From the NCBI GenBank assembly GCA_039809385.1, contig JBDHUY010000016.1, forward strand, positions 1-37,929: a stretch of 37,929 nt of DNA. The letters run 5' to 3'. The notes under the pieces were generated by a model. The model was not told where the DNA came from and did no database searches. It worked only from the letters and a program-made list of their open reading frames with translations. The position numbers were made by a program, and so were the translations under genes. Below, piece after piece: positions 1,838 to 37,929 of the stretch; within the stretch, counting starts at the first letter, position 1, and each line of letters starts with the position of its first letter. This stretch comes from Candidatus Altimarinota bacterium (GTDB lineage: Bacteria; Patescibacteriota; Gracilibacteria; JBDHUY01).

Positions 1838-2105
1838 AAATGGGGGATGCTACGAAATTAAAATACAGATATCTTTTGGTTTTCAGTGTCGGACCAGTAT
1901 CGTTTTTTATTTTGTTTTCAAGCTTATCAATCAAAGTCCGGAGTTGCTCCTCGTTCAGGCTCCGCACGCCGACCCGGTCAAAAAGAATAATGATCAGTAT
2001 CCCCAGGTGCAGGGACTCTTGCTGCTCCGGGTATTCCTGTCGGCTGTAGTATTCGCTCCACAGGGACCAGGCCGTATTTTGAAGCTCTTTACGGTTTTGT
2101 TGCAT
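1794..2105 (-). CDS. Hypothetical protein
   Basis: 103-aa ORF overlapping both neighbours in the leftward operon. Confidence 0.55.
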   Translation of the reverse strand: MQQNRKELQNTAWSLWSEYYSRQEYPEQQESLHLGILIIILFDRVGVRSLNEEQLRTLIDKLENKIKNDTGPTLKTKRYLYFNFVASPIYGTAEYSSIGAGRS

Positions 2106-2283
2106 TGAAGATTAGTATCAGGAGAGTGAGAAGAAGCAACAAAGCGGCGGCACCGAGAAACATCCAAACGATCCGCTGAAGCAAAAGTTGATAGGCATAT
2201 TCCAGCTTGTCGCGGGTACCGATCTTCCGGAACCGGCCTCGTTTGCCGCGTAAAAACGGGATTTTAACCGTTTCGATATTCAT
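2089..2283 (-). CDS. Small membrane protein (basic N-terminus, one C-terminal TM helix)
   Basis: Likely ATG at 2283 (MNIETVK...), just after the upstream stop; hydrophobic IVWMFLGAAALLLLLTLLILIF. Confidence 0.6.
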   Translation of the reverse strand: MNIETVKIPFLRGKRGRFRKIGTRDKLEYAYQLLLQRIVWMFLGAAALLLLLTLLILIFNATKP

Positions 2284-2293
2284 GACAAAAACG

Positions 2294-2644
2294 TTAAACA
2301 AATAAACCTGCCGCGCCTTCTCGTTTGGCTCGATCAATCCACAAAGCTACTTGCTCGTCTTTCGGCGTATGACCTGTATTTTCGACAAACCGCTTGATCC
2401 GGTAGGAAATCATTTCGCGCAGCGCCGGGCTTACTTTGCGCAAAAAAACATCTTCCGGCTTGGCTTTTCGAATTTTTCGAATATCCCGGGTCAGAATATC
2501 TTCTTCGTCGATGCATATGATCGCCGCCTGGACGCGAATATGCCGAATTCTTTTACAGGTTTCGTAGTCGACGACATAGAAATCGCCGTTAACCATCTCG
2601 ATGACGTACATCTGCTCGTATTGTTTGAGCGTTGCTTGACTCAT
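2294..2644 (-). CDS. Hypothetical protein translationally coupled to the replication initiator
   Basis: ATGA overlap with the rep stop at 2641-2644; 116 aa. Confidence 0.7.
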   Translation of the reverse strand: MSQATLKQYEQMYVIEMVNGDFYVVDYETCKRIRHIRVQAAIICIDEEDILTRDIRKIRKAKPEDVFLRKVSPALREMISYRIKRFVENTGHTPKDEQVALWIDRAKREGAAGLFV

Positions 2645-3459
2645 ACGGTAGTAAATTTATAAATAATAGTTTGAGAAAAATTAGTTTTTGCCTTGATTTT
2701 GAGCTGGTCGTACTGTTCCCGAAACTTCGCGGCCGACAGAATATTTGCTTTCCAGAACTTGTCGTTCTGGCACCAATTCAACAATACTTCCACATCACCG
2801 GGCGGACGGCCGTCGACCCGTAGTACCAGGTCGAACACTTCCGCCCATGCCTGCAGGCCTGCCTCCTGAATTTGGGGATCCTGCCATTTGGGCAGACAGT
2901 CGGGCGAGTTGTGACGCATGAGTTCAAAAAGCAACTGCGCCAGACGATACGGCTCCGACTCTTTTGCAAAAATTTTAAAAACTTTTTTCGGTCTTCTCCT
3001 CCCCCTGGGGGGATTATAGGGGGGTGCACCCCTGTTTAGTTCTTTACTGGTATAGTTCAGGTCGCTCTGTGCACCTACCCCCCCGTCGTCGTCGGCACCT
3101 ACGTTGTTGCTCTCTGCACCTAGGTAGTCGTTTTCGGCATCTACCTTGGCGGATGAATTCGATTGTACGCGAGGATCTTTATAGACGGTATATTTGGTAT
3201 TATCGTACTCTTGGGATCCTTCAACGAGTTTCTTCTGTCGCGAAATGAGGCCGTCCTTTTCGATCTCTTCGAGGTAGCGCAATACGGTCGTGCGATGGAC
3301 CCCCGTCTCTTCGGCGATCGTATTGAGCGAAGGGTAACACTGACCTTCGTTGTTCGAGTGGACCCACAGCCACGCCACGATCGTCTGATATATGGGGTTT
3401 TTACCCCGGACCAGCTGCGCCGGGAATATGCCGAATGTTCCTTGTTCGAGACGTTTCAT
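2641..3459 (-). CDS. Phage replication initiator (N-terminal HTH_36-like winged helix, lambda-O/DnaD-like C-terminus)
   Basis: CYPSLNTIAEETGVHRTTVLRYLEEIEKDGLI HTH; C-terminal DKFWKANILSAAKFREQYDQL motif typical of phage replisome organisers; internal DNA repeats. Confidence 0.85.
   Translation of the reverse strand: MKRLEQGTFGIFPAQLVRGKNPIYQTIVAWLWVHSNNEGQCYPSLNTIAEETGVHRTTVLRYLEEIEKDGLISRQKKLVEGSQEYDNTKYTVYKDPRVQSNSSAKVDAENDYLGAESNNVGADDDGGVGAQSDLNYTSKELNRGAPPYNPPRGRRRPKKVFKIFAKESEPYRLAQLLFELMRHNSPDCLPKWQDPQIQEAGLQAWAEVFDLVLRVDGRPPGDVEVLLNWCQNDKFWKANILSAAKFREQYDQLKIKAKTNFSQTIIYKFTTV
3061..3143. repeat. Iteron-like repeats inside rep (probable lytic origin)
   Basis: GCACCTA at 3071, 3095 and 3116 and GCATCTA at 3137 (spacing 24, 21, 21), with conserved flanks (GTCG/GTTG-N-TCT/TCG). 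Confidence 0.7.
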
Positions 3460-3469
3460 GTCCGGATAG

Positions 3470-3592
3470 TTAAAAAAGACTGAGTTGTTTTTTGCGATCG
3501 ATCTTGCGGCGCTTTGGTGCTAATTTTAGCTTTCTTATGCGTTTTCTTGGGGGGGGTGGAAAGAAAGACATTTGACCCGGGAGTTGTTTCAT
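3470..3592 (-). CDS. 40-aa basic peptide with two beta-clamp-binding-like motifs (not in ORF track)
   Basis: Manual translation MKQLPGQMSFFPPPPRKRIRKLKLAPKRRKIDRKKQLSLF*; fills the ssb-rep gap. Confidence 0.7.
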   Translation of the reverse strand: MKQLPGQMSFFPPPPRKRIRKLKLAPKRRKIDRKKQLSLF

Positions 3593-3605
3593 AGATCTTT
3601 AGTGC

Positions 3606-4001
3606 TTAAAAGAGATCCGTTTCCTCCGTTTCGCCCTGCCTGGTATTACGGCTCCCCTCTTCTGTCTGGGGTTTGCGGTCAAGCAAGATAACCCTTTCGG
3701 CGACGATCTTGATCCGGTAATGCTTGACGTCATGGTCGTCCGTCCAGTTGTCGACCTTGAGCTTGCCCTCGACATAAAGCGCGCTCCCCTTCCGGGCGTA
3801 TTGACTGACCACCTTGGCGAGTCCTCCCCACGCGACGACATTATGGAAGTCGGTCTCTTCGCGTTCCTCTCCCGCTCGGTTCTTATATCTCTCGTTTGTC
3901 GCAATCGAAAAGTTGGATACTATCTGGCCGCTTTCAAGCTCTTTCCCCTCCGGGTCGCGTGTCAGACGACCGAGGATCTGAACTCTGTTGAGTGTCTGCA
4001 T
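3606..4001 (-). CDS. ssb: Single-stranded DNA-binding protein
   Basis: LNRVQILGRLTRDPE...FSIATNE...TDFHNVVAW...KGSALYVEGKL OB-fold signature; acidic tail ending ETDLF. Confidence 0.95.
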   Translation of the reverse strand: MQTLNRVQILGRLTRDPEGKELESGQIVSNFSIATNERYKNRAGEEREETDFHNVVAWGGLAKVVSQYARKGSALYVEGKLKVDNWTDDHDVKHYRIKIVAERVILLDRKPQTEEGSRNTRQGETEETDLF

Positions 4002-4019
4002 TGGTTAAAAAATAATGAT

Positions 4020-4664
4020 TTAAAATAACAATTCTTGGCGTAGTCCTTCCCGGGCTATATCGCAGTACTTCTCTTCCAATTCGATTCCGATAAACTTCCT
4101 GCCTAGATACTTAGCTGCTATAAGCGTTGTGCCCACGCCCGCAAATGGATCCAGCACCATCTCTCCGGGATTAGAAAAGTACTTTACTAAGCCTAAGACA
4201 TGATCGATACGCCGGGGAGTGGGGTGTTTTCGTCTTTTCCGAGTAATGGGACCGTTATAACCGTTCGAGATAATTTCGCCCGGAATGAGTTTGTTTTCTT
4301 GTCTTTGCGGCAACCGGCCGAATACATAGGCGACATCGGACCCGATGAGGATCCTGCCCCGGTAAGAGGGGAAACAGTAGCGTAGCCACATGGTTCGAAT
4401 ATAGGGGAGACTCTTGGGAATTGAACCCAAGAACCGCGGATCGCTGGTACATCCCAACTGGACCACCACTGTCCGCGCGATTCTTGCAAATTCTTTGGCT
4501 GCTTTACGGAATACCTCCCAGGGATTCTTCGATCCTCGCAAACTCGGCAGAGCATTCGGCCAGACCGGGTCGGTGATGATCGTGTCGACAGATTGATCGG
4601 GGAAAGTTTTTAAAATCTTGAGGCTGTCGCCACAAATAATCTGATTGAGTTGCGTAAAAATCAT
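4020..4664 (-). CDS. DNA methyltransferase, N6-A/N4-C (beta class), orphan
   Basis: IICGDS...IITDPVW catalytic motif variant, HPTPRR, VLDPFAGVGTT SAM-binding motif, FIGIEL. Confidence 0.9.
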   Translation of the reverse strand: MIFTQLNQIICGDSLKILKTFPDQSVDTIITDPVWPNALPSLRGSKNPWEVFRKAAKEFARIARTVVVQLGCTSDPRFLGSIPKSLPYIRTMWLRYCFPSYRGRILIGSDVAYVFGRLPQRQENKLIPGEIISNGYNGPITRKRRKHPTPRRIDHVLGLVKYFSNPGEMVLDPFAGVGTTLIAAKYLGRKFIGIELEEKYCDIAREGLRQELLF

Positions 4665-4819
4665 GACAGAAATATTGCATTGATATCAGACACATGGTTA
4701 TTCCGGATCGGGCGCACGTCGAAAAGCCCGGCGGATTGTTTGTTGCGTTGCCGGTCACGGGCGGCCGCTTCGGCGCGCTCACGCAGAACATCGATCGTCA
4801 AACGAGTGGATGGTTGCAT
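4661..4819 (-). CDS. Small hypothetical protein, 52 aa (not in ORF track)
   Basis: MQPSTRLTIDVLRERAEAAARDRQRNKQSAGLFDVRPIRNNHVSDINAIFLS*; T-rich leader and ATGA overlap with the MTase start. Confidence 0.6.
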   Translation of the reverse strand: MQPSTRLTIDVLRERAEAAARDRQRNKQSAGLFDVRPIRNNHVSDINAIFLS

Positions 4820-4868
4820 AAAAAATACGTGGAAAATAAAAATAAAAAAGATACTAGTGTAGTTACTG

Positions 4869-5021
4869 TTATTCTCTATCCTTCTCTTGGGCCTTGGCGG
4901 TGTTGTACTCTTGTTTGAGTCGTTCTACCAATTGCTCATGTGAGGAGATTTTTACTTTGAGTGAGACAATCTGAGACTGATGATGACGGATACTCTTTTG
5001 GATAACTTTGGAGGAAATCAT
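4869..5021 (-). CDS. Small coiled-coil protein, 50 aa (not in ORF track)
   Basis: MISSKVIQKSIRHHQSQIVSLKVKISSHEQLVERLKQEYNTAKAQEKDRE*; heptad pattern; starts 12 nt after the upstream stop. Confidence 0.6.
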   Translation of the reverse strand: MISSKVIQKSIRHHQSQIVSLKVKISSHEQLVERLKQEYNTAKAQEKDRE

Positions 5022-5033
5022 GATAACGAGGAT

Positions 5034-5306
5034 TTAAGCAGATGTGAGGACCCCGCGGCGCCGGACGCCCGGCTTTCCCCGGACCAAGGGATTGGACACT
5101 TTGCAAAAGACCGTGGGCGGGTGCGGGTGGTTTTCGGCACACAAGTGAATCTTCAGGATGGCCGGGAGATCGATCTTGTTTTTGGCCAAGTATTCGTTCC
5201 ATAGTTTCTCACCGCCGCCGCTGACCATAAACTCGGCGATGAAGCGGGAGAAGACAATGCGCGATTGCTGGAACATGTATTCGGTGTACTGTTGAGGTTT
5301 ATCCAT
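5034..5306 (-). CDS. First gene of the leftward early operon, hypothetical
   Basis: Likely start MDKPQQY at 5306 after a pyrimidine-rich leader, directly downstream of the structured RNA leader. Confidence 0.55.
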   Translation of the reverse strand: MDKPQQYTEYMFQQSRIVFSRFIAEFMVSGGGEKLWNEYLAKNKIDLPAILKIHLCAENHPHPPTVFCKVSNPLVRGKPGVRRRGVLTSA

Positions 5307-5358
5307 GGAAAAAATGAAAATGGATAAAAAAACACACGTGTCGGTCACGAGAGCATAC

Positions 5359-5502
5359 AAAAAAGGCTCTCACGGGTGCTATTGCTTAGATAACTATCCC
5401 ATCCTTGGTTTTTATGCCATGGAAAAGATTCCGTGAGGGCCTGCAATATGTTACAGGATTTTTCCATAAAAACCAAATAAATGATAGAATAGTATCTAAG
5501 CA
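5359..5502 (-). ncRNA. Structured leader RNA, element E3 (C4/CI-like A-a-B-a'-A'-B' architecture)
   Basis: A 5483-5502 pairs with A' 5383-5403 (20 bp, 2 G-U, 1 bulge); a 5465-5476 with a' 5405-5416 (12 bp perfect); B 5431-5442 with B' 5364-5375 (11/12), followed by a U-run. Confidence 0.65.
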
Positions 5503-5507
5503 CATAG

Positions 5508-5536
5508 ACAATACGCTCTTTTAATACTATAATCAA
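5508..5536 (-). promoter_or_regulatory. Sigma70-type promoter for E3 and the early operon
   Basis: TTGATT-17 nt-TATTGT; arm A begins ~6 nt downstream. Confidence 0.6.
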
Positions 5537-5584
5537 GTTTTTTGTACTGAAATCTACTTTTTACTTTAATTATTAAAGTTTTTT

Positions 5585-5773
5585 ATGCAAGACAAAAACA
5601 AAACGGACAAATCAGACGTGAAACAAATACAGGTTTCCGTTCACAAAGAACTCTACGACCATATCCAGGAAACCAAAAAGAAGTACCTCTTCTCATCCAT
5701 GGCGGACGTACTGAAGGAGGCTTACAGAAGGACGTTTCTGAAAGAAGAGGAGAAAAACGATAAAAAAAGTTAG
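5585..5773 (+). CDS. Ribbon-helix-helix (CopG/Arc-like) transcriptional regulator
   Basis: KQIQVSVHKELYDHIQE...SSMADVLKEAYR matches the RHH beta-strand/helix/helix pattern; divergent from the early promoter. Confidence 0.75.
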   Translation: MQDKNKTDKSDVKQIQVSVHKELYDHIQETKKKYLFSSMADVLKEAYRRTFLKEEEKNDKKS

Positions 5774-5829
5774 ATTCTTATAAGAAAAAGTCTATATAAT
5801 AAGCCAATGTTATTTGCTTAATATTCAAT

Positions 5830-6861
5830 ATGAGAAAACTTTTTTTAGCAGTATCATTTCTGCTAATACCCTTATTAACTGGATGTTCGTCAGATTGGAT
5901 ATTAAAATTGGTTTCAGAAGAACAAAAACCGGCGACAACTATCGAAACTTACGATTCAATCAAATCAGGCATTAATGCTGAAAAAGCTACAACAGAATTA
6001 AAAGATGCAATAAACATTAAACTTCCCCAAAAAAATCGAACAGAAATACAAAAGGGGGACAGCTTCTTATGGATTACAAAAGACGGTCTTTCTGTAAAAG
6101 CCCAAAATACATTCTTGTTGACATACAAGATATATCTAGGAGATCAGGGGGTTTCGGGTGAGCTAGTTGAGGTGGTTAAGCAACCACAAAATCAAATTAT
6201 TATGGGAGAATTCTTGGAAGTAATGAAGAAGCTCAAATTCAATAAAAATGTCAAAAATAGTTCTGCAAATCCATCGGACGACAAATTCTATAGTTACATT
6301 AAAGCATATGAGAACGACAAAACTGTTTGTTTAATTGAGATAAGACCCGACTATTTCAGTGATAGTGAAGACAGCAAATCTCGATATCAGACAGAAATTA
6401 AATGTATTAGTAAAGAGAACCTAGAACAAGCCTACAATGAGCAGGCCCCGATTCTACGTGACCTAGGATTGACAAATGGGGAGAGTTTTATAACCATAGT
6501 GAGACAGTATGGAGACTTCATAAACTTAAATGTAAATTTTAGAGTAACAGGTTACTTTACTCTGGCCAAAAAAGAGAATGGGCACTACAAAGGTATTTTC
6601 AGCGGACAAGATAGTCCAGAATGTTCTGTACTTAGAGACAATAATGTACCCGCGGAATTCTATAATGATTGCTACGAACCAGAAAATGAACAGAAAATTA
6701 CAACACCGAGCTTTTCTAACCAGCCGTACTATATAGATGATCCTTATTATAATTGCAATATACGCCAAGGGTGTTGCTCCCATCATGGCGGAGTATCTTA
6801 CTGTGATCACAGCTTAGGAAGAGCGGTATGCAATGACGGAACTTACAGCCCCAGTTGCTAA
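5830..6861 (+). CDS. Lipoprotein with C-terminal Cys-rich RQGCCSHHGGV domain (accessory/moron)
   Basis: Signal peptide with lipobox LLTGC; C-terminal CCSHHGGV...CNDGTYSPSC motif; low GC. Confidence 0.8.
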   Translation: MRKLFLAVSFLLIPLLTGCSSDWILKLVSEEQKPATTIETYDSIKSGINAEKATTELKDAINIKLPQKNRTEIQKGDSFLWITKDGLSVKAQNTFLLTYKIYLGDQGVSGELVEVVKQPQNQIIMGEFLEVMKKLKFNKNVKNSSANPSDDKFYSYIKAYENDKTVCLIEIRPDYFSDSEDSKSRYQTEIKCISKENLEQAYNEQAPILRDLGLTNGESFITIVRQYGDFINLNVNFRVTGYFTLAKKENGHYKGIFSGQDSPECSVLRDNNVPAEFYNDCYEPENEQKITTPSFSNQPYYIDDPYYNCNIRQGCCSHHGGVSYCDHSLGRAVCNDGTYSPSC

Positions 6862-6871
6862 AGAATCAAGT

Positions 6872-7174
6872 ATGAAAAAACTACAAACCGTCTTTCTATT
6901 TTTGGCGATCTTGATTACCTTTGGCTGTCAAAAGAGTGAGCCACCAGTTGATACTGTGACTCCCAAACTAGAATCTATGGCCCAGGATATAAAAGTTTTG
7001 AATATAAAAGTAAAAGCAATCGGTGAGGAGGTTTCAGAGCATATTAATGAGATTGACGCACTAGAAAGTGATAGCGAGAGCCTGGAATCGAAAATAAGCG
7101 ACCTTGAATACCAAGTATCTGATATTGAAGATCAAGTAAGTAAACTGCAAAAAAATATTTTATACGGATATTGA
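6872..7174 (+). CDS. Small coiled-coil lipoprotein (accessory)
   Basis: Likely start MKKLQTVF at 6872; lipobox ITFGC; long acidic heptad repeat. Confidence 0.75.
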   Translation: MKKLQTVFLFLAILITFGCQKSEPPVDTVTPKLESMAQDIKVLNIKVKAIGEEVSEHINEIDALESDSESLESKISDLEYQVSDIEDQVSKLQKNILYGY

Positions 7175-7266
7175 TCAAAAAAACTTATCCCCTTTTTATT
7201 GATTTCGCTCAGGCTGGGGGTATACTCCCGGCAGCACGCTTTTTCATAATACAAGTGTGCTGTGGT

Positions 7267-7416
7267 GGGGGACGTGCCGGTTGTCACACCACGCTATCAT
7301 ATCAATGATCAGCGAAGACACGTCCTCCTCTTTCGGTAATCGGGACAAAAAATAAACCTCTTCCTTGTCTGAAGAGCTTTTTGATTGCGGACGGCCACTG
7401 ATAGAATGATGTGACA
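7267..7416 (-). ncRNA. Structured RNA element E1 (A-terminator-B-A'-B')
   Basis: A 7399-7416 pairs with A' 7282-7299 (17/18 with 2 G-U on the minus strand); B 7317-7328 with B' 7267-7278 (11/12), enclosing two hairpins. Confidence 0.6.
7347..7382. terminator. Probable bidirectional intrinsic terminator inside E1
   Basis: CTCTTC (7358-7363)/GAAGAG (7371-7376) stem with an A-tract on the left and a T-tract on the right. Confidence 0.55.
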
Positions 7417-7422
7417 GTTCCC

Positions 7423-7451
7423 AATCTAACAGGTGTTTTGTGCCAGTGCAA
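7423..7451 (-). promoter_or_regulatory. Sigma70-type promoter of E1
   Basis: TTGCAC-17 nt-TAGATT; arm A starts 7 nt downstream. Confidence 0.6.
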
Positions 7452-7491
7452 GCGCCAAAGATAAGAAATTTATAAACTTTTCGTACAAACT

Positions 7492-7613
7492 AATAAAGCG
7501 GGGCTACCAGCCTGGCAGCCCATACGGACAGCTTACGCCAATCCACATGGCAGGACATGATAGCCCCACTCTATTTGTGGATCGGATATTTTGAAAACTA
7601 CCGTATGAGCTGC
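7492..7613 (-). ncRNA. Structured RNA element E2 (A-a-B-a'-A'-B')
   Basis: A 7601-7613 pairs with A' 7515-7527 (13 bp, 1 G-U); a 7576-7585 with a' 7538-7547 (10 bp, 1 G-U); B 7558-7575 with B' 7492-7509 (18 bp, 3 G-U). All apparent mismatches are G-U only on the minus strand. Confidence 0.7.
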
Positions 7614-7619
7614 ATGATC

Positions 7620-7648
7620 AGCATAGAGGAAGTCAGCATATTATGCAA
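7620..7648 (-). promoter_or_regulatory. Sigma70-type promoter of E2
   Basis: TTGCAT-17 nt-TATGCT; arm A starts 7 nt downstream. Confidence 0.6.
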
Positions 7649-7723
7649 AATTGAAAAAGATTTTGACTATTGTAATAGTATACTGTTAGTATATTTATAT
7701 AATACTTTTTACCGAAACAGGTT

Positions 7724-8020
7724 ATGGGAGAAATAACTGGACGTGTATTGATTCAGGTTAGGGTTAATAAGATCTATCGAGACGAAGCGCGGGAGGTGCT
7801 TGACGATATCGGTATGGATGTAACCACCGCAGTTGAGATATTTCTAAAGACCGTAGCAAAAGAAAGAAAGATTCCTTTCACTCTTCGCGCTACGGATCCG
7901 CATGATTTCTATACCGAACAAGATCGCTTGGATATCCAGGAAGCGGCCCGCGAAATTGAAAAGGGCAATTTTATTACCCAAGAAGATCTGATGAAAAAAA
8001 TTAAAGCCCGTAAATCATGA
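7724..8020 (+). CDS. relB: RelB/DinJ-family antitoxin
   Basis: IQVRVNKIYRDEAREVLDDIGMDVTTAVEIFLKTVAKERKIPF is the RelB/DinJ RHH signature; ATGA overlap with the toxin. Confidence 0.9.
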   Translation: MGEITGRVLIQVRVNKIYRDEAREVLDDIGMDVTTAVEIFLKTVAKERKIPFTLRATDPHDFYTEQDRLDIQEAAREIEKGNFITQEDLMKKIKARKS

Positions 8021-8271
8021 AAGTTATATACTATCCCAAGGCTGAAGATTTTCTCCTCAAACTGACACCTAAAAAGTTTGCCGAAAGGATGATTAATAAA
8101 ATGCAGTGGTTTTCACAACAGGAAAATCCCTTGGACTTTGCCAAGCCACTGACTAATTTGCCGCCGGCAACACATCGATTCAGGATCGGGAATTATCGAG
8201 TTACTTTCAGTATCGATAAGGATCAGATCAATGTCTACAAAATTGATATTCGTAGCAAGATCTACAAATAA
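8017..8271 (+). CDS. relE: RelE/ParE-family toxin
   Basis: MKVIYYPKAEDFLLKL...HRFRIGNYRVTF...VYKIDIRSKIYK RelE signature. Confidence 0.9.
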   Translation: MKVIYYPKAEDFLLKLTPKKFAERMINKMQWFSQQENPLDFAKPLTNLPPATHRFRIGNYRVTFSIDKDQINVYKIDIRSKIYK

Positions 8272-8273
8272 GA

Positions 8274-9287
8274 TCACGCCCCCACTCCCCTCACCTGAAA
8301 ACCAGCAATTCCCGCCGAGGACTCTTCTGGGTTATTTTCTGTTTCGGGATCTTGCAGAATATCCTCAAAACTCATTTCACCATCAATGATCTGTGGTAAA
8401 TACGTTCTAGCCTTCGCATTTATGGCAGTTTCCGAAGAACTTAAAATTGCCGGTACTTCCGTCTTGGCTTTTTCTTTAAGGAATTCCCACTGATCCGGGT
8501 GCTCTTCTATCCAGGTATTCAAGATCTGGACTCGGGCCCTGTTCTGTTCTTCCTCTTTTTCTCTTCGACGTTGTTCCTGCTGTTCTTGCTCTCGTCGTTG
8601 TTGTCGTTCCTCTTCCTGTCGTTTTTCTTCCGGACGGACGTCCCAATTATCCTTGAGGGCTGAAATGATCCAAGCCTCCCGGCTGGTCTTGAACGATTCG
8701 ACCCGCCCTGATGCTTCGATCACTTCCTGAATCCGACCAGTCGGGTAATTATTGATTATTTTCTGCCCCTCTGATTTAGAGAAATGTAAATTCTGAAACA
8801 ACTCTTGTGGTTGTTCTTTTTTTGAGTATTGATCACCTGTTTGTTGTTCGTCGGAAACTGATTTCCGCTCTTGACCGGCAATAGATTTCCGAACAGGAGA
8901 GGAATTAGGTTGCCGATCGGGACCGGCAATAGATTTCCTTTCCATGATCTTGGCTTGGTATTCGGCTACAATGTCTTTTCTGGTTTGGGTAAAATCCAAG
9001 AAATGGTAGATATTTGGCCGGTTGAATCCTTGTCTTTCGATCATGATGAGCTTTTTTTTCTCCAGATCTTTCAAAATATTGCGGACCTGCCGTATACTGA
9101 TCTTCGAGTCTTGGCTTAAAGTATCCTGAGCCGGAAAAGCTTCCGGATTATGCCAGGCATAGCTTAAAAGAAGCATATACATTGCTTTTTCTTGTAGCGA
9201 GAGACTGCCAGTGTAGAGAATTACATTCGGCGTCTGGGCAAAACCGTCTCTGAGGATCGGATTGTGGAATACTGCCTTGTCATTCAT
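8274..9287 (-). CDS. Second replication initiator (HTH_36-type; probable plasmid-state Rep)
   Basis: GFAQTPNVIL...LSLQEKAMYMLLLSYAW...AFPAQDTLS...VRNILKDLEKKKLI...NRPNIY winged helix; WIISALKDNW C-terminal motif; internal iterons. Confidence 0.8.
   Translation of the reverse strand: MNDKAVFHNPILRDGFAQTPNVILYTGSLSLQEKAMYMLLLSYAWHNPEAFPAQDTLSQDSKISIRQVRNILKDLEKKKLIMIERQGFNRPNIYHFLDFTQTRKDIVAEYQAKIMERKSIAGPDRQPNSSPVRKSIAGQERKSVSDEQQTGDQYSKKEQPQELFQNLHFSKSEGQKIINNYPTGRIQEVIEASGRVESFKTSREAWIISALKDNWDVRPEEKRQEEERQQRREQEQQEQRRREKEEEQNRARVQILNTWIEEHPDQWEFLKEKAKTEVPAILSSSETAINAKARTYLPQIIDGEMSFEDILQDPETENNPEESSAGIAGFQVRGVGA
8849..8938. repeat. Four 24-bp-period iterons inside the second rep
   Basis: GACCGGCAATAGATTTCC is identical at 8873-8890 and 8921-8938, with degenerate copies at 8849-8866 and 8897-8914; semi-palindromic GG(A/C)A...TT(T/G)CC core. 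Confidence 0.8.
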
Positions 9288-10138
9288 TTAGATCCAAATA
9301 ACCATTTAAATAAACCTCTCGTATTTTTGTTTTTTTTAACTTCCTCTTTGGGATCTTCCTCTTCATGAATAACTTCCGTTTCTGGTATAATGATCTCCTC
9401 GGGAACTTTCGCGATTGCCTCAAAAATAGAACTCTGAGGAGCTTCTTGATACTCAGCATCTTCCGGCATCTGCAGATCTCCCGAGTCGGTGATCTCTGGA
9501 ATAAGTACCAGCTCCCGGGGATTTAACGCGCCTTCTCTTAGGCGGCGTACGTCTTGATTGTATCGTAAAGAGAGAATCTTGTACTTGCCTCGCAGATCGG
9601 CCAGCTGGGCTGCTGCTACGCTCGCCTCCTTAGCTAGTCGCTCTACTTCGCTGCTATGGTGTCTTTCCGCATCGACCCGGAGATCGTTCAATCTCTGGAT
9701 CTCTGCGTTGATCCGTTGACTTTCCTCTTGGGACTTCTGGAGCTCCCGCTCCATAAAATCATATAAGCGATCGTCGGTTTCTTTCGTCTCGACGGGCATG
9801 GTATTACGTTTTTGCGGTTCAGGTATTACGACCTCGGAAGGTATATTATAAATTGACTGGAAACCAGGTATTACATCACGGAATGCGTCGGGGGTGTATT
9901 CCTCAATTTTTTGGAAATCAAGTCTTACCTTGTCCGGGTGTCGCCGTGCAAATTCTCGAATCGAGCTCGCTGAAATAAAGGTCTGGGGTCGACCATTATA
10001 CTGTTTATCTTTTTTCCTAATCCCGTCGGAATAATAGCTCCATAGAGTCTTCACACTTTTTCCTATAATAGTAGCGGCTTCTGGAATCGCGTAAATATAA
10101 TCATCATCCTCACTCAGGATAGGAACATTTTTAGCCAT
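9284..10138 (-). CDS. HTH + coiled-coil protein with amphipathic C-terminal tail (pSK1 Par/RacA-like architecture; putative partition protein)
   Basis: YAIPEAATIIGKSVKTLWSYY HTH, central coiled coil, acidic disordered region, terminal RGLFKWLFGSK; ATGA-coupled to the second rep. Confidence 0.6.
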   Translation of the reverse strand: MAKNVPILSEDDDYIYAIPEAATIIGKSVKTLWSYYSDGIRKKDKQYNGRPQTFISASSIREFARRHPDKVRLDFQKIEEYTPDAFRDVIPGFQSIYNIPSEVVIPEPQKRNTMPVETKETDDRLYDFMERELQKSQEESQRINAEIQRLNDLRVDAERHHSSEVERLAKEASVAAAQLADLRGKYKILSLRYNQDVRRLREGALNPRELVLIPEITDSGDLQMPEDAEYQEAPQSSIFEAIAKVPEEIIIPETEVIHEEEDPKEEVKKNKNTRGLFKWLFGSK

Positions 10139-10409
10139 ATACGAAACGAATAATATTATGTATAAGAATATTATTCGACCTCTCTGGAATATGCAATACT
10201 ATGAAAGTAAATTGTGCTTACGTCTACTTTCTTTTGTTGCGTACTATTGCCTACATATTCGGCAATAAGCGAAATATGCTAAGTTGAAAAATCAGTATAT
10301 AAGCCAAAATATACGTAATACGTCTTCTTTCTTAATTACCGAAGTTATGTTATACTGCGAAAGAAATAGTAGGAAAAATACTTCACACAACGTAATACTA
10401 AAAACAAAA

Positions 10410-10601
10410 ATGGAAATACTAATCCTCGGATTCTTGATATTCTTTGCGAGTTTGTTCTTCTCCCACCTTCGCCGGATCGACCAGGGGGAGGAGAGTGTGC
10501 CAGACTCCTATACCGACCTTGTAGGGAGTTTTATATTTTTACAAAAACAAAATGAAAACAAAAAAAGAAACGCTCGAAAAAGTCGAGCAAACCGCCAGTG
10601 A
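10410..10601 (+). CDS. Small membrane protein (uncertain)
   Basis: ATG at 10410 after an A-rich leader; N-terminal hydrophobic MEILILGFLIFFASLFF. Confidence 0.4.
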   Translation: MEILILGFLIFFASLFFSHLRRIDQGEESVPDSYTDLVGSFIFLQKQNENKKRNARKSRANRQ

Positions 10602-11286
10602 TAGGCCCAAAACAATATTAGGTGCGGTTTACTACCGGGCCGTATCGGACGTCCTGGAACATGGAATCCAAGCTCCGCTACAGAGGGCTGTACGGGTGCT
10701 CGGTATCATGATACTGATACTCGTCCTGTCCTTCCCCTCATACATTGCTTCGGGAATGATCGCACTGTCCCGGGTGGAAGGGGGACGCTTGCAGACACTC
10801 ATACTTCTGTCGATCGCCGCACTTTTTTGGCCAAAAATAAAAAACGGAATTAAAAAGCTGCATAAAATCGTATTAGACGAATACAATCGAGTCAGGACGA
10901 TACAATATACTGGCCACCGCTTCGAAGGGATCCCAGTTCGTGACCTGATCGATTTTCTATTATCAAGCGACCCCTTCGGCCGAGATGTCTTTGAATTTCT
11001 TTTCCGGGATTTCGTAGCACATCCCCGGGAAGTTCACGCCAAGCTCAAAGAATACCTCCTGGAAGAAGGGATCCTAGTTCGTGCTAAGGAACGGGACAAC
11101 GCGATTGTGCTGAATCCCGAGATCGGGGAGGCTGCATTGATCGAATTTTTTCGGCGTCGGACGGGTGTCCTGAGCAGGGGAGAGCAGGCCCCCTCCCTCC
11201 CCTCGTTCACGATCAGAACAATTCATGGCGAAATTATGAGCGAACCGCATCCGCAAGGCACTGCAAACCAGCCGCAAACCGAGTAG
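10552..11286 (+). CDS. Membrane protein, two TM helices plus cytoplasmic helical domain
   Basis: Hydrophobic segments VLGIMILILVLSFPSYIASGMIAL and LILLSIAALFW; 244 aa. Confidence 0.7.
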   Translation: MKTKKETLEKVEQTASDRPKTILGAVYYRAVSDVLEHGIQAPLQRAVRVLGIMILILVLSFPSYIASGMIALSRVEGGRLQTLILLSIAALFWPKIKNGIKKLHKIVLDEYNRVRTIQYTGHRFEGIPVRDLIDFLLSSDPFGRDVFEFLFRDFVAHPREVHAKLKEYLLEEGILVRAKERDNAIVLNPEIGEAALIEFFRRRTGVLSRGEQAPSLPSFTIRTIHGEIMSEPHPQGTANQPQTE

Positions 11287-11390
11287 GGGAGGGGAGTACA
11301 AGCTCTACAGTTTAAAGTTGTTGACTTCCTATAAGATATGCTATATTTAGTATGTCTTTTTTTTCAAACGCCGTATTATTTTTTTCATAT

Positions 11391-11702
11391 ATGAAGAATA
11401 CGTATCAAAAAGGTCAAATCAGGACTTTAATCTTTCAACGACCTGACGGAATGTATTAGGGGGTTGTTTTTGAGTTTGGTATTGTGGAAGAGGGAGAGGA
11501 TAAATACAAGCTCTTGAAATCTTTACAGGAAGCAGCCAAGCTTTATCTGGAAACCATTGTGAAAGAAAAATGTTCCGAAGATCAACTCAATTATGAGATG
11601 GATCAGGAGTATGAAAGTTTGTGGCAAAAATCTCAAACCAAGAAACAATCATTTTTGTCGACCGACGAAGAGTCCTGGCTTTACAAATATATGAGTTTAT
11701 AG
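11391..11702 (+). pseudogene. HicB-like protein interrupted by an in-frame TAG (11457-11459)
   Basis: MKNTYQKGQIRTLIFQRPDGMY*GVVFEFGIVEEGEDKYKLLKSLQEAAKLYLE matches the HicB N-terminal fold pattern across the stop; TGcTATATT extended -10 upstream. Confidence 0.65.
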
Positions 11703-11717
11703 CCTGAGTCGATAATC

Positions 11718-11793
11718 TGGTAGCGGGCCCCGGAGTTGAACCGGGATAAGACAGGTTATGAATCTGCCAAGGTCGCCGTCCCTTCCACCCGCG
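11718..11793 (-). tRNA. tRNA with CAT anticodon (Met/fMet/Ile2), encoded CCA
   Basis: CGCGGGT-GG-AAGG/CCTT D-arm-GCAGA TTCATAA CCTGT-CTTAT-CCCGG TTCAACT CCGGG-GCCCGCT-A-CCA; 76-nt cloverleaf. Confidence 0.85.
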
Positions 11794-12095: not shown

Positions 12096-12827
12096 TTATT
12101 CTAGTAATTTAAGCCGATCGAGCGCCACTGCAAACCGTTCGCGCGTCAGTATGTTCTCAATTTTTTCGAAAGCCCCGAGTCTCTGCAAAACAATCTCCAG
12201 CATTTCATTCGTTACGATACCTTGGGGATCCTGACCGTTGAAGACTCCTTTTTTTTGGGCTTTTTCCCATGCTACGGAAGCCCATTCGCTGGGCTCGGTT
12301 TTTACAGGTTCTTTTGGGAAAAGGATATTCTCTAATTCCTGCAGAGCGACGGCACCCTCTTTTACGATTTTGTCACGTTTTTCGATATCTGAGATATCGA
12401 TCATTTCCAGCAACCAAGCTGGACACCGTGTATCCCGAATAATCCCCAGCCGGCCTTGACGTGCCGAAGTATCCGGACGGACCCAGTAGCGATCGTGGCC
12501 AAATAGATCTTTCCAGTACCGGCCGGTTACGTCTCCCTGCTTTTTTGCCCATTCGCTCCCATCAAAATAAAACACCCCGCAATCGCTGCCCGGATCCTTG
12601 TCCTCAGCATCGCAATGTAGCTCGATCAGATAGTCTTCGGGCATGATATAGCGGTTTGCATATTCGATGCGCGCGCCCAGCGCAAAAAACGGCACCGTGC
12701 GCATCCCTCTCTTTTTGCATTCATTAACGATGGCGATAGTCACCTCTCGCTCGTTTACTCCGTCTTTGCCCTGAGTCCCCGATTCTCCCGGACCCGAATG
12801 GCCGGCGCTGATCCAGAGGTTTGGCAT
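12096..12827 (-). CDS. Endolysin, N-acetylmuramoyl-L-alanine amidase (Amidase_3) with C-terminal SLH-like domain
   Basis: ISAGH...NERE...IELHCDA...LGIIRDTRCPAWLLEM zinc-amidase motifs; SEWASVAWEKAQKKGVFNG...TRERFAVAL SLH-like; likely start MPNLW at 12827. Confidence 0.9.
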   Translation of the reverse strand: MPNLWISAGHSGPGESGTQGKDGVNEREVTIAIVNECKKRGMRTVPFFALGARIEYANRYIMPEDYLIELHCDAEDKDPGSDCGVFYFDGSEWAKKQGDVTGRYWKDLFGHDRYWVRPDTSARQGRLGIIRDTRCPAWLLEMIDISDIEKRDKIVKEGAVALQELENILFPKEPVKTEPSEWASVAWEKAQKKGVFNGQDPQGIVTNEMLEIVLQRLGAFEKIENILTRERFAVALDRLKLLE

Positions 12828-12886
12828 GGGACAAAATTTAAAAAGTTGGACCGCAAATAGAACAAACCCAATCAAAAGTCAAGATT

Positions 12887-31224: not shown

Positions 31225-32211
31225 TTAGGAACCGTAAGTCTCAAGCCGGGCCATGAAAGCATTATTCAAAATCAATGCCGCAAACGTGGCTTTCCACCCC
31301 ATCGTTTGGCGCTGATTCAAGGCATCGGCCGAACCGGCCGAACCAAGCGGATGAATAATCGTCTCCATGGCATGCCCGGCCACTTCTGTAGTCCCATAGG
31401 CTTCACGCGCCAAGATTAACGTAGCATAAACATCCACGCCGCCAGAGCCGCCACCAGCAAATTTTTTAGCATTCGAGCTCATAACAAAGCGAAACATACT
31501 GTACGAGCCAACCTCGCCAGGCAGTATACCCATCTGGGCACTGTACTTTTCGACTCTAGTAAAGCCGGTAAGACCTTTTAGAACGTAATAAACTCGAGGA
31601 TGGATGATCGCGACAAAACAAGCCGGAATCGGAGTCGTATTCACCTTGTCTGTCGGATTTATCATCTCAGTAATCGGTCGTGCGTTGTTTTCCAAAAGAT
31701 TCCGCTCGATCTTATCCAGCAAGGTCGTACTGATTACATCCGACGAAGTTATCTGATTGCGGTTCGTGTACGTCGAAGGTAAAAACAGATTCGTCCCCGC
31801 CACCAGTACGTCCCGGGTAACCTGATCGAGCGTATCCGCTGCCTGATCCCCCTGTAAATCGGAGGTATCCATCAGGCTCTCATTTTTCATCAAGTCGTCC
31901 GGAGTCTCCCATTCGAGTACGTCCGATATGGTGACATAGTCGCCATATTGAGCATACGTCACCTGTACTTCCGTCGTAGACAATTGGGAACCGTTAGGCG
32001 TCACTCCTTCGGTGAGCGGAGTTGTCGCGGCTGTCAAATTGCTGTAACGGCGAAATTTCACAGTGCCGGTACCGGCTTTGGTTGGGATCGATTTAACCCG
32101 GCCCCAACGATTGTGGAGAAATAAAGGGAGCGCACGCAGTAGCAGATTTTTGTCGTAAAAGTTATTGACTTCTGCCGGTACCTGCGTACGCGTGGTTACA
32201 CTAGCTGCCAT
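31225..32211 (-). CDS. Major capsid protein, N4-gp56 family
   Basis: FYDKNLLLRALP...VKFRRY...TPLTEGVTP...QYGDYVTISD...DALNQRQTMGWK signature. Confidence 0.92.
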   Translation of the reverse strand: MAASVTTRTQVPAEVNNFYDKNLLLRALPLFLHNRWGRVKSIPTKAGTGTVKFRRYSNLTAATTPLTEGVTPNGSQLSTTEVQVTYAQYGDYVTISDVLEWETPDDLMKNESLMDTSDLQGDQAADTLDQVTRDVLVAGTNLFLPSTYTNRNQITSSDVISTTLLDKIERNLLENNARPITEMINPTDKVNTTPIPACFVAIIHPRVYYVLKGLTGFTRVEKYSAQMGILPGEVGSYSMFRFVMSSNAKKFAGGGSGGVDVYATLILAREAYGTTEVAGHAMETIIHPLGSAGSADALNQRQTMGWKATFAALILNNAFMARLETYGS

Positions 32212-33321: not shown

Positions 33322-35265
33322 TTAAGCATTAGGAGGTAATGGGTTCGAGGGCCCTGCTCCGCTATACGAGACCGAGGGCATGCTTGCCGGCTGTTCGGCC
33401 ATCATCTGATCGCCCGGCACGGTTGCACCCTGCTGCGCGGCAAAAAGTTCGGGGCGTTGTTTCTTGGCTACGATTGCCATGCGATGCGCTTCTATATGCT
33501 TTCTTTGGGCTTCGTTCTCGTCGGCTTTCAAATGCTCCATAATATGCACCAGATCGTCGTCGGTCGGCTTGACCGGCACGTTTTTTCCCTGATTGATCGC
33601 ATCGTTCTCTTTCTGAGCCAGCAGCTCTTCGGGAGTTGCCGGCAATAATAATTCGATTTCGTATGGTTCAAGCCCCGATTCTTCGGCCAATATTTTTTCG
33701 GCATATCGTTTGTTCGCATACGGATCTTGACCAATCATCGTCATCAGATTACTGATCACCTGCAGACGATTGCGTTTCTTGGCTTCGGCCAAAACACGCG
33801 ATTCGACCGTTATGTCAGGATCCACCGCCATGATCACATTTTCCCGAGTCATCTTTTTCATCCGCTGCCCGAAAGCGCCGGTAATGCGCACAACCTTTTT
33901 ATCGATACCCTGCTTGAAATGCACCTTGTACTGACGGTACCATTGCTCCCAGAAACGCCGCTCGGACCAACCGAAGATCTTTGCACACAAAGAATAGCGC
34001 GTATCGACCTTCTGTTGGGCAATATTGAGCTCGGTCGCCGTACGTTTGTCGGCCGATAGCACACCCTGCTGAATATCAGGGGTGGCCGTAGCTTTTTGCG
34101 CCGAGACGTCGATATAATCCAAGATCCACTGCGAGGCGCCCGCCACGATATCCCGCCGAATCGGCTGTATCGCGCCCGCCACGTCTCCGTTTACTTTCAC
34201 CAGCTTATTAAAACCGAAATCCAGATCCTTGACGCTTTTTATTTTATTCACGTCAAAGGCCAATTGAGGGTAGAGACCCGATCGAATCCCTTTGACCAGC
34301 AGATTCTGCAAGACGGCACGCATCCGCTGCTTGTCTTCGAGCAGATCCGGGATCGACACGCCATCCCAGTTGTTTGCCACCGGGTAGATGGATCGATCGA
34401 CGCCAGGCCAGCGGGTAGTTTGAAACGATTCCTCGAGATTAACAAAACGGATAACCTCTTTTTTATCCGATGCCAAGGTGACAAACACCTTTTTCCCTTG
34501 ATAGTGTGTGAACCATTCGAGACACAAAAAGGTTTGATTATCAGACATCTTTTCATCACTGCCCTGCTTATAACCGACATCTTTATTCGGCTGACTGTTA
34601 AGTCCCTGATTTGTCGTGCGAATATTTTGGGCCTGATCAAACAAATTCTTCTGAGAAATATCGTCGACTTTCGTACGGGTTGGCATACGTAACACACCTT
34701 TCGATTTTTCGATATCGTATTTACTCAGGCGAATCTCTCGTCCGAAGAAACGCGCCGCTCCCCTGCCAATAAGATCGCCATTCAATGTGCGCGCCATAGG
34801 ATCCCGGAGCGTTACCATCGGATCCATAACCTCGGGTACAGGCACCATCATTTCTCTATTGAAGGTCAGCATGAGCATGATGGCCCGGCCGAAAAAGGTA
34901 GCGTTAAAGTCGTACTCGTAGTCGAGCACGTCTTTTTGCATGAGATCGTAATCATATTTCGCCATCGCATTCAGGTTTTCGGCAGTAAGACGATCTCCCT
35001 CTTCGACCTTGAGGAACTTCATCATCAAACGATCGTCGTAGAGAGCCGCCAGTACTGTCTGGTGGATCGTAAACATGAGCGGATCTCCATAACTGTCTTT
35101 ATCGCGAGTCTGGTTGTTATAGATCTTCAACCGCGTACCCCACTCGCTAAAGCGGGACTGCATAAATCGATACGCAAAATCGTACTCGGCTCTGACCTGA
35201 TCGATCAAAGATAGATACACAGTCTCCTCTATTTTTTTAGATTCCTTTTGAAGCTCTTTCTTCAT
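33322..35265 (-). CDS. Portal protein (P22-like size)
   Basis: 647 aa directly after TerL; GVSIPDLLEDKQR, RTATEL and DDDLVHIMEH motifs; Q/P-rich tail. Confidence 0.85.
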   Translation of the reverse strand: MKKELQKESKKIEETVYLSLIDQVRAEYDFAYRFMQSRFSEWGTRLKIYNNQTRDKDSYGDPLMFTIHQTVLAALYDDRLMMKFLKVEEGDRLTAENLNAMAKYDYDLMQKDVLDYEYDFNATFFGRAIMLMLTFNREMMVPVPEVMDPMVTLRDPMARTLNGDLIGRGAARFFGREIRLSKYDIEKSKGVLRMPTRTKVDDISQKNLFDQAQNIRTTNQGLNSQPNKDVGYKQGSDEKMSDNQTFLCLEWFTHYQGKKVFVTLASDKKEVIRFVNLEESFQTTRWPGVDRSIYPVANNWDGVSIPDLLEDKQRMRAVLQNLLVKGIRSGLYPQLAFDVNKIKSVKDLDFGFNKLVKVNGDVAGAIQPIRRDIVAGASQWILDYIDVSAQKATATPDIQQGVLSADKRTATELNIAQQKVDTRYSLCAKIFGWSERRFWEQWYRQYKVHFKQGIDKKVVRITGAFGQRMKKMTRENVIMAVDPDITVESRVLAEAKKRNRLQVISNLMTMIGQDPYANKRYAEKILAEESGLEPYEIELLLPATPEELLAQKENDAINQGKNVPVKPTDDDLVHIMEHLKADENEAQRKHIEAHRMAIVAKKQRPELFAAQQGATVPGDQMMAEQPASMPSVSYSGAGPSNPLPPNA

Positions 35266-36794: not shown

Positions 36795-37410
36795 CCAAGT
36801 CTGTAATAGGAAAAAAATCACCGTACGGGCCAAGACCTTTTGCATCCTGTATATCTTTGACCTTGCCCTGCAGTATAGCGTCAAGCTGTTCTTCGGAGAG
36901 CTTACTAATATCATGCTCAACTTTTACTTTTTTCATAATCCGATTTTTAAGGGAGTTAAACTCCTTGATTGCACCCAGTTTTGACCTAAAATCATCATAT
37001 TGAGTCATCAAAAAGAAGAGCTGTTTATCAGCATGGAGTTCGTTAAAACCATTCATATCCAGTAACTGTGTGATCCTATTCGAGATCTTAACATTTCTTA
37101 ACAGTCGGCTCGCTGCCGCGGATGCAACATTATACCAGTTTTCATTTTTAGTATTAACATCGTATGCTTCTACGTATGACTTTACCCCATTGCCAAAAAA
37201 CTCAACGTCTGTTGCATATAATTTACAAAATTGTTCCTGCTGCAGACTCAGGCTATCTTTATTTTTTACAATAGGCACAGCAACAGTTTTCGCCTTTTTC
37301 CTCGAAGCTGATCTCTTTTGAAGCTTTCCCTTCAAAGGATTCTTCGTTTTGACCGGTGGTTTAATTTGCCGCTTCGCTTTCTTTGGCACGGCGGACTTTT
37401 TGGGCTTCAT
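36778..37410 (-). CDS. terS: Terminase small subunit with Lys-rich N-terminal extension
   Basis: LSLQQEQFCKLY...GNGVKSYVEAY...AAASRLLRNVKI TerS HTH; DISKLSEEQL tail. Confidence 0.85.
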   Translation of the reverse strand: MKPKKSAVPKKAKRQIKPPVKTKNPLKGKLQKRSASRKKAKTVAVPIVKNKDSLSLQQEQFCKLYATDVEFFGNGVKSYVEAYDVNTKNENWYNVASAAASRLLRNVKISNRITQLLDMNGFNELHADKQLFFLMTQYDDFRSKLGAIKEFNSLKNRIMKKVKVEHDISKLSEEQLDAILQGKVKDIQDAKGLGPYGDFFPITDLDDNIE

Positions 37411-37642: not shown

Positions 37643-37777
37643 TCATAGACTTACATCATAATTTATAGAATACTTTTGATAAGCCAAATATAGTATTGGC
37701 TTCCAATAATCACGAAAAGCAATCGCTTTAATTTTATATCGATAATATTCAACAAAGCTTCCAATTTTTATTGCCAT
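37643..37777 (-). CDS. Small hypothetical protein (44 aa, uncertain)
   Basis: ATG at 37777 (= position 85 in the repeat) overlapping the end of the 57-380 gene; MAIKIGSFVEYY... Confidence 0.35.
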   Translation of the reverse strand: MAIKIGSFVEYYRYKIKAIAFRDYWKPILYLAYQKYSINYDVSL

Positions 37778-37929
37778 AGAAAACATTATATAAAAAATCA
37801 ATTGTAAACTCGGACTGGCCGGATAGGTCAGTATCCAATTGCCAGTAGTCACGAAGTAATGATTCAATGACTGTAACTGGCTTGTGTACTGGATGCCATT
37901 GCCATAATCCGATCTTTTTATCCAACGTC
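37693..37929. repeat. Terminal repeat copy 2: 121 bp identical to 1-121, then a diverged homolog of 122-240
   Basis: After 37813 there are about 30 substitutions plus one 3-nt gap relative to 122-240; reading frame preserved. Confidence 0.9.

Follow-up and report, generated by a model that had tools for sequence, protein, structure and literature searches.

A strongly structured RNA candidate with two long helices beside a toxin-antitoxin pair in a phage of Candidatus Altimarinota

The DNA analysed here is contig JBDHUY010000016.1 of a Candidatus Altimarinota bacterium (assembly GCA_039809385.1), taken over its full length of 37,929 nt and called the window below. It is one entire contig of a 1.87-Mb, 26-contig genome bin and represents a phage genome. 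Within a 549-nt gap between its open reading frames (ORFs) lies E2 (7492-7633, minus strand), which folds much more stably on the minus than on the plus strand and contains two long helices that cannot be nested in a single structure. The 5′ arm of E2 is perfectly complementary over 13 nt to the junction between a replication gene, rep, and the gene that follows it, ORF116. The reading that we prefer, with a probability of about 0.5, is that E2 is a strand-specific structured RNA, most likely small and non-coding, and that a chance origin of its match to the junction is likelier than a functional one.

E2 would then be an RNA of ~120-140 nt, transcribed from the minus strand in the accessory island of the phage, with a promoter back-to-back with that of a relBE-type gene pair. 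One helix (helix 1) would mask the 5′ arm, the other (helix 2) would join the apical region to the 3′ tail, and both would compete with a terminator-like hairpin. Candidates for the partner of such an RNA are a phage RNA, a host RNA or a protein. An earlier annotation made from the letters of the DNA alone (the first-pass annotation) had suggested that E2 acts in trans on the junction, blocking translational coupling of a lytic replication gene, with its own 3′ arm as an internal mask.

Two long helices on the minus strand

The predicted folding energy of E2 on the minus strand is -58.3 kcal/mol (z -5.27), and none of 200 shuffled sequences was equally stable. The plus strand, in contrast, reaches -36.8 kcal/mol (z -1.62), which was equalled in 11 of 200 shuffles. 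When the contig was scanned on both strands with 130-nt windows in 15-nt steps, corrected for G+C content, E2 was the most stable window of all. The fold consists of 35 Watson-Crick and eight G-U pairs, seven of the latter within the long hairpin. Since these seven become A-C on the other strand and the z scores differ (-5.3 against -1.6), E2 is best read as a minus-strand RNA. That it is a real structured RNA of this strand we consider quite probable.

Helix 1 is formed by arm A (7595-7613, minus strand), the 5′ arm that holds the 13-mer at 7597-7609, and by arm A′ (7515-7534, minus strand) on the 3′ side. The pairing of arm A with 7534-7515 comprises 13 bp, a 1-nt bulge and 6 bp, 19 bp in total, with an energy of -28.2 kcal/mol as an isolated duplex, and bears out the A′ arm as a possible internal mask. 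In the minimum free energy (MFE) fold, which uses helix 1, the enclosed region (7538-7585, minus strand) forms a 10-bp inner stem, in which 7585-7576 pairs with 7547-7538, and at its apex a weak further stem. Helix 2 pairs segment X (7558-7575, minus strand) with segment T (7492-7509, minus strand), the 3′ tail with its U-rich tract. It contains 18 contiguous pairs, three of them G-U (-27.8 kcal/mol), and is the sole local stem of at least 17 contiguous pairs on either strand of the contig. X has no bases in common with helix 1. Because the two helices are incompatible in a nested fold while sharing no bases, E2 would either switch between two folds or form a pseudoknot.

The 13-mer is buried in the 19-bp helix in both the MFE and the centroid fold. 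Opening it costs ~6.6-7.2 kcal/mol, compared with 0.8-0.9 kcal/mol for the CU-rich 5′ leader (7614-7633, minus strand), which is unpaired in the MFE fold and whose start at 7633 assumes that transcription begins ~7 nt past the -10 element. Arm A therefore does not offer the accessible seed by which a trans-encoded base-pairing small RNA (sRNA) is recognized. The cost of holding arm A open, 7.2 kcal/mol (-51.1 against -58.3 kcal/mol), is low because E2 refolds around helix 2.

A terminator-like hairpin of nine pairs, six of them G-C, matches the consensus at 7501-7521 (minus strand) and is followed by the U-rich tail CGCTTTATTA. Its 5′ half is the last 7-8 nt of A′ and its 3′ half lies in T, so that the hairpin competes with both long helices. 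It is missing from all MFE folds of E2. In folds of the growing chain, helix 1 has formed in full at 120 nt, ahead of the synthesis of T. The modelled two-helix architecture would fit an internal mask of arm A and, equally, an attenuator-like sensor.

The ends of the RNA and its transcription are predicted from signals of this kind. A promoter-like site (7640-7669, minus strand; TAGTCA, an 18-nt spacer and CATAAT) has nine of 12 consensus positions and is a consensus match only. Its -35 element overlaps that of a divergent promoter-like site (7663-7692, plus strand) for the relBE-type pair. The palindrome TATACT-GTT-AGTATA (7679-7693) lies inside the latter site and is likely an operator. Transcripts that read through the 3′ end of E2 could next stop at a terminator-like hairpin at 7358-7376, which can be read in both directions and would also terminate the plus-strand genes that end at 7174. 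There is no ATG on the minus strand from 7490 to 7376, and hence no ATG-started ORF before this next terminator; the stretch 3′ of E2 towards 7376 is not notably structured (z -0.99). Five small ORFs in the gap around E2 gave no PHROG match at E<=1 and nothing above the cut-off in Pfam. Two ORFs that overlap E2, 7433-7594 and 7557-7736, are both on the plus strand, which folds poorly.

The match between arm A and the rep/ORF116 junction

The word CTCATACGGTAGT is found at exactly two sites in the window, 2640-2652 on the plus strand and 7597-7609 on the minus strand, and 100 shuffles gave no expected occurrence of it. This places the E2 arm antisense to the rep stop and ORF116 start, just as the first-pass annotation had claimed. 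From 7613, the minus strand of E2 reads GCAG-CUCAUACGGUAGU. The putative target on the early mRNA, ACUACCGUAUGAG (2640-2652, minus strand), is complementary to the 13-mer of arm A. It takes in the three sense codons that precede the rep stop (Thr-Thr-Val), the stop codon itself, and the AUG of ORF116 with two further nucleotides. Plus-strand TCAT at 2641-2644 corresponds to ATGA on the minus strand, in which the stop of rep overlaps the start of ORF116. Arm A and the junction form 14 contiguous pairs with a computed energy of -25.2 kcal/mol, the 13 Watson-Crick pairs and the flanking G-U pair that had been described.

The naming of ORF 2641-3459 (minus strand, 272 aa) as rep is well founded. 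Its matches to the PHROG families 'DnaD-like helicase loader' (E 1.1e-29) and 'replication initiation O-like' (E 4.3e-27) and to Pfam HTH_36 (E 2.8e-11) support a replication initiator of the O-like/DnaD-like type in the early block of the phage. ORF116 (2294-2644, minus strand) matches no Pfam family and no PHROG family and has no usable Atlas match. Given the ATGA overlap, rep and ORF116 are probably a translationally coupled pair in the replication operon. A further contact between a second segment of E2 and the same mRNA had also been proposed. A short match is indeed present, but it amounts to a 9-nt identity (ATCCACAAA, 2337-2345) within the terminal part of ORF116, away from any likely start. 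The next gene has an in-frame ATG at 2283, and we give the match no weight.

How surprising the match is depends on what it is compared with. Inverted 13-mers are ordinary in the window, which has 32 pair positions for them (~20 distinct sites); 10 are listed for a length of 14 nt and one for 17 nt. Start regions, defined as -20 to +15 around the 46 ORF starts, make up 2.1% of the sequence scanned, and there are only three cases in which a perfect 13-mer anywhere on the two strands of the window is complementary to one of them; E2 holds one of the three. For a 142-nt stranded segment named in advance, the chance of holding such a 13-mer is 3 x 130 / 75,858, a nominal p of ~0.005 before correction for the many things noticeable in 38 kb. 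With regard to the position on a start codon, which the first-pass annotation had named as the supporting point, matches touching a start are rare, but matches as such are common and null distributions based on energy are weaker.

In a cofold test that allows E2 to refold, the junction ranks first of the 46 starts at -12.0 kcal/mol when E2 is taken from 7614, and third at -14.0 kcal/mol when it is taken from 7633. In a cofold scan of the minus-strand RNA, however, the junction (-15.0 kcal/mol) is only sixth of 1,633 windows, five scoring better. As 34 of these windows reach -12 kcal/mol, about one of 46 start regions is expected to do so by chance. We also computed an accessibility-corrected score, the hybrid energy plus the opening energies of both sides, as a simplified stand-in for IntaRNA/CopraRNA. 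By this score the junction (-15.1 kcal/mol) is second on the minus strand, no site on the plus strand is as good, and five distinct sites on both strands together reach -14 kcal/mol or better. The chance of a start-region match this good is then roughly 0.02-0.09. Selected from everything visible in 38 kb, the junction match is suggestive and not significant. Judged by sequence and energy, the junction would still be the best candidate target of E2 inside the phage.

Eight metagenome runs from two studies of wastewater and activated sludge, all of DNA, contain the stretch, and four of them (X1, X3, X6 and X7) were compared with the window over 2000-8400, X6 and X7 covering it partly. X1 is identical to the window throughout. 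X3, which comes from the other study, has only two differences in 6.4 kb, 2651 G>T and 3709 T>C, both non-synonymous. The latter changes Lys98 of SSB to Arg. The former lies inside the 13-mer, changes the third-last codon of rep from Thr to Asn and shortens the duplex at a loss of 4 kcal/mol, leaving 11-12 pairs between arm and junction. The X3 contig over 7191-8164, which includes E2, shows no difference. X6 and X7 have the unchanged G at 2651 wherever their pieces extend over this position. In X3 the junction and E2 come from two different contigs whose depth is similar, which makes their linkage likely but does not prove it. Compensatory changes between arm A and the junction had been named as a check on the pairing; with the pairing broken at one end of the target and E2 unchanged, X3 shows the kind of pattern that had been named as refuting, although it is a single variant and 11-12 pairs are left. 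The probability that one of two differences falls in the 13-mer by chance is 2 x 13 / 6,401, or ~0.4%, and the change could reflect selection on the site rather than neutrality.

Searches for relatives of E2 found it in this phage only. The region 7000-8100 has no match among phage records by blastn, and the DNA of E2 matches only itself in its own genome, apart from 14-18 nt matches at E>=0.58. In 60 related genomes there are just 15-35 nt matches, the best at E 0.005. The exact arm patterns have no occurrence in the viral and genome contig collections, and a covariance model built from E2 aligned to itself recovers only E2 among 56 sources (797,545 bases) and in its own genome. Rfam gives no match at gathering score over the whole window, its C4 model included; at E<=10, the region 7100-7800 matches two eukaryotic snoRNA models only, far below their gathering scores. 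E2 is an orphan sequence in these collections.

The phage genome around E2

Besides rep, the early block contains SSB (3606-4001, minus strand) and a DNA methylase (4020-4664, minus strand). The structural and lysis functions are represented by an amidase (12096-12875), a capsid protein (31225-32211), an SU10-type portal (33322-35265) and the large terminase (35349-36920), all on the minus strand. A tRNA-Met gene with anticodon CAT, identified by ARAGORN at 11718-11793 on the minus strand, lies just downstream of the lysis/structural block. The ends of the contig, 1-238 and 37693-37927, are direct repeats with 95% identity over 152 nt followed by 76% over 79 nt. Since the ends repeat each other, the contig probably goes once round a circle of ~37.7 kb. 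This suggests a circular or permuted genome that was assembled once around into a strain variant.

E2 belongs to an island of mixed gene orientation (5585-11702). Divergent from it are a relB-like antitoxin gene (7724-8020, plus strand; RelB, E 2.2e-8) and a ParE/RelE-like toxin gene (8017-8271, plus strand; ParE_toxin, E 0.0041, below the Pfam cut-off). They are followed by a second Rep-like gene (8274-9287, minus strand) with HTH_36 and DnaD_N domains and a PHROG match to replication initiation. Its coding sequence holds three 24-nt-spaced repeats (8853-8938) that resemble an internal origin. The second Rep-like gene and the adjoining relB/parE-like pair look like a plasmid-type maintenance module. 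No integrase family was found among the window ORFs scanned. Plasmid records contain no match to 7175-8300 (blastn) or to the second Rep protein (tblastn).

A further long hairpin, E1 (~5385-5503, minus strand), comes directly after the divergent promoter region at 5536/5585. The ATG at 5466, which may start an ORF of 40 aa, lies within it. Its 201-nt fold has an energy of -55.3 kcal/mol (z -4.54), and its sequence has no similarity to that of E2. Only one of the 46 ORF starts, that of ORF 397-582, is preceded by a GGAGG-type Shine-Dalgarno motif. The upstream regions are rich in A/U, and translation initiation in the host is therefore probably independent of a Shine-Dalgarno sequence.

The proteins of the early and accessory regions have few relatives. 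The rep protein has none in the viral contigs and none in the genome contigs; the metagenome contigs contain one locus, with 30% identity and on a contig of 2.9 kb, and 400 genomes of the class contain three weak matches, mostly N-terminal, at 31-42% identity. Two weak Rep-like matches in the same class, L019 (genome G172) and L020 (genome G310), have three and one in-frame TGA codons, respectively, which may indicate an alternative genetic code in parts of the class or broken genes. The 343-aa neighbour protein and RelB have no relatives in the viral contigs. The terminase, in contrast, has 55 viral loci (L021-L075) with 25-64% identity (mostly 45-62%), many on contigs of 36-42 kb. None of these carries E2 (one 19-nt blastn match at E 5.8, none by nhmmer) or ORF116, and only L032 has a weak Rep match, of 36% over 88 aa. 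The terminase family thus comes without the early and accessory genes of this phage, which identifies the replication and accessory region as its variable part.

Competing readings and known systems

We lean towards coincidence for the junction match because ~20 inverted 13-mers exist in the window, the junction is sixth in the cofold scan, the G>T change of X3 is uncompensated in E2 and the seed is enclosed in a 19-bp helix; nor does the seed have an evident single-stranded toehold. Several observations pull the other way. E2 holds one of only three perfect 13-mers that link the window to the 46 starts (nominal p ~0.005), the accessibility-corrected score of -15.1 kcal/mol is the second best on the minus strand, and arm A opens for 7.2 kcal/mol by way of helix 2, so the mask is cheaper than it appears. 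The position of one of the two X3 differences within the 13-mer (~0.4%) is a possible hint of selection. That E2 is expressed at all is predicted from promoter-like and terminator-like signals, which likewise tempers our preference.

If the match is functional, E2 could be a trans-acting antisense sRNA whose arm A, once released, pairs with ACUACCGUAUGAG, blocks translation of the coupled ORF116 and possibly destabilizes the operon; in a plasmid-like prophage it would restrain the lytic replication module in the manner of an immunity function. As a hypothesis, repression in trans at the junction is reasonable; our data neither support nor exclude it, and we rate it as rather unlikely. The 14 contiguous pairs (-25.2 kcal/mol), the rank of the junction among the starts (first or third of 46), its second place on the minus strand (-15.1 kcal/mol) and the rarity of 13-mer matches to start regions (three in the window) are in its favour. 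As 45 of the 46 starts lack a GGAGG-type Shine-Dalgarno motif, initiation could plausibly be blocked at the start codon region itself. Refolding around helix 2 reduces the cost of unmasking to 7.2 kcal/mol, and the toxin-antitoxin pair, the second Rep with its iterons and the lack of an integrase among the ORFs scanned provide a fitting setting, in which the X3 change inside the target could be an escape variant. However, E2 is uncompensated in X3, the absence of E2-bearing relatives from our searches leaves no covariation to support the pairing, the seed is buried in helix 1, and five windows outscore the junction in the cofold scan. The second proposed site is just 9 nt long and away from any start, and ORF116 has no known function that would make its silencing an evident benefit. 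A bolder form of the same idea, which we consider unlikely, takes E2 as a riboregulator, bistable or with a pseudoknot, that serves a plasmid-like prophage: contact with the junction would flip the RNA from helix 1, which masks a 14-nt seed, to helix 2 and shut off coupled translation of lytic replication. E2 would then be an RNA immunity switch, with X3 as a natural partial-escape variant.

E2 may also have no regulatory function and be a folded single-stranded DNA signal, a hairpin for RNase III-type processing or stabilization, or part of a small protein gene. Wobble pairing of G and T is tolerated in folded DNA, and G-T pairs in single-stranded DNA would give the same strand asymmetry. The hairpin E1, which heads the early operon, indicates that long hairpins recur in this phage, and ORFs 7433-7594 and 7557-7736 overlap E2 on the plus strand. 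E2, however, has promoter-like and terminator-like signals of its own outside any operon, the ORFs that overlap it have no family match and are found on the strand that folds poorly, and no function in replication or transfer that uses single-stranded DNA was identified beside it. We judge this explanation improbable. Least probable in our view is a sensor or attenuator in which helix 1 acts as the antiterminator. An RNA bound to arm A, for example the junction of the early mRNA, would release A′, which could then pair with T in the terminator-like hairpin, giving a choice between an RNA of ~140 nt and a read-through of ~285 nt ending at 7358-7376. The placement of the hairpin halves in A′ (7521-7515) and T, the absence of a canonical terminator from the MFE folds and the completion of helix 1 by 120 nt, before T, all agree with such a device, and antisense-induced termination is an established mechanism, as named in PMC2879508. 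On the other hand, the read-through would reach no gene to regulate (no ATG on the minus strand from 7490 to 7376, z -0.99), and with arm A open the predicted fold takes helix 2 rather than the terminator hairpin.

Other candidate identities were rejected. No reverse transcriptase was found that would go with a retron RNA, no match in the own genome exceeds 18 nt as a mimic of CRISPR repeats would, and no Rfam match points to a known ribozyme or riboswitch. A tRNA-like element is dismissed since ARAGORN finds only the tRNA-Met at 11718-11793, and an anti-Shine-Dalgarno role of the CU-rich leader since a GGAGG-type motif is absent at 45 of the 46 starts. The frames of 13 and 8 codons that end in arm A are not credible leader peptides, with no ribosome-binding signal and no downstream gene. 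A type I or type III RNA antitoxin is likewise rejected: the locus has no tandem repeats and no convincing small toxin ORF, and the neighbouring pair is of the protein-protein type.

The control that E2 might exert has parallels in known systems. In the CopA/tap/repA system of plasmid R1, as described in PMC5717011, the antisense RNA acts indirectly by blocking a frame to which the next one is translationally coupled. Antisense control of a replication operon through a coupled frame is what has been proposed for E2, by analogy. CopA, however, is a cis-encoded RNA from the strand opposite its target, to which it is complementary throughout, whereas E2 is ~4.9 kb from the junction on the same strand and complementary over 13-14 bases. 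Here an apparently coupled pair does lie in a replication operon, but E2 does not overlap it on the opposite strand as a cis-antisense RNA gene would. The order of genes also differs: in R1 it is repA itself that is coupled to the blocked frame, while in our phage rep is upstream and the following ORF116 would be silenced.

The c4 RNA of phage P1 is processed from its target operon and works through short complementary boxes and the coupling of icd and ant. It represses synthesis of the Ant proteins, according to PMC8546580. E2 would resemble this immI system as a small trans-acting RNA of a plasmid-type prophage that is directed against a protein of the lytic cycle. In contrast to c4, E2 has no Rfam match and is predicted to be a separate transcription unit, and its target would be a replication operon and not an antirepressor. 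E2 is a member of neither the R1 CopA nor the P1 c4 family, as it is not cis-encoded and no Rfam model matches it.

The plasmids pT181 and pIP501 are examples of antisense-induced transcription attenuation. This named mechanism (PMC2879508), also represented by RnaG/icsA, would share with E2 mutually exclusive helices, if those predicted here form, and the principle that an occupied 5′ segment would free a 3′ segment to form a terminator-like hairpin. E2 differs in having no regulated gene downstream, in that its predicted alternative fold prefers helix 2 over the terminator and in that any trigger would be encoded in trans. Phage-encoded base-pairing sRNAs are treated as a class in PMC12197685, with an example in bioRxiv 10.1101/2024.10.31.621285. 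Like the members of this class, E2 would be a short non-coding RNA gene in an accessory region of a phage, with a putative mRNA target. The known examples were found by expression, mostly target host mRNAs and have accessible seeds, whereas E2 is a sequence-only orphan with a masked seed.

The solid result is the smaller one, an orphan and strongly structured RNA candidate beside a toxin-antitoxin pair, with one plausible putative target. If E2 did silence the coupled genes of the lytic replication operon, it would carry the antisense logic of R1 and P1 over to an RNA that acts in trans and masks itself, and would be a compact natural RNA switch made of two alternative helices of ~18-19 bp. 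It would place such logic in a phage of a poorly sampled lineage of small-genome bacteria from wastewater and activated sludge.

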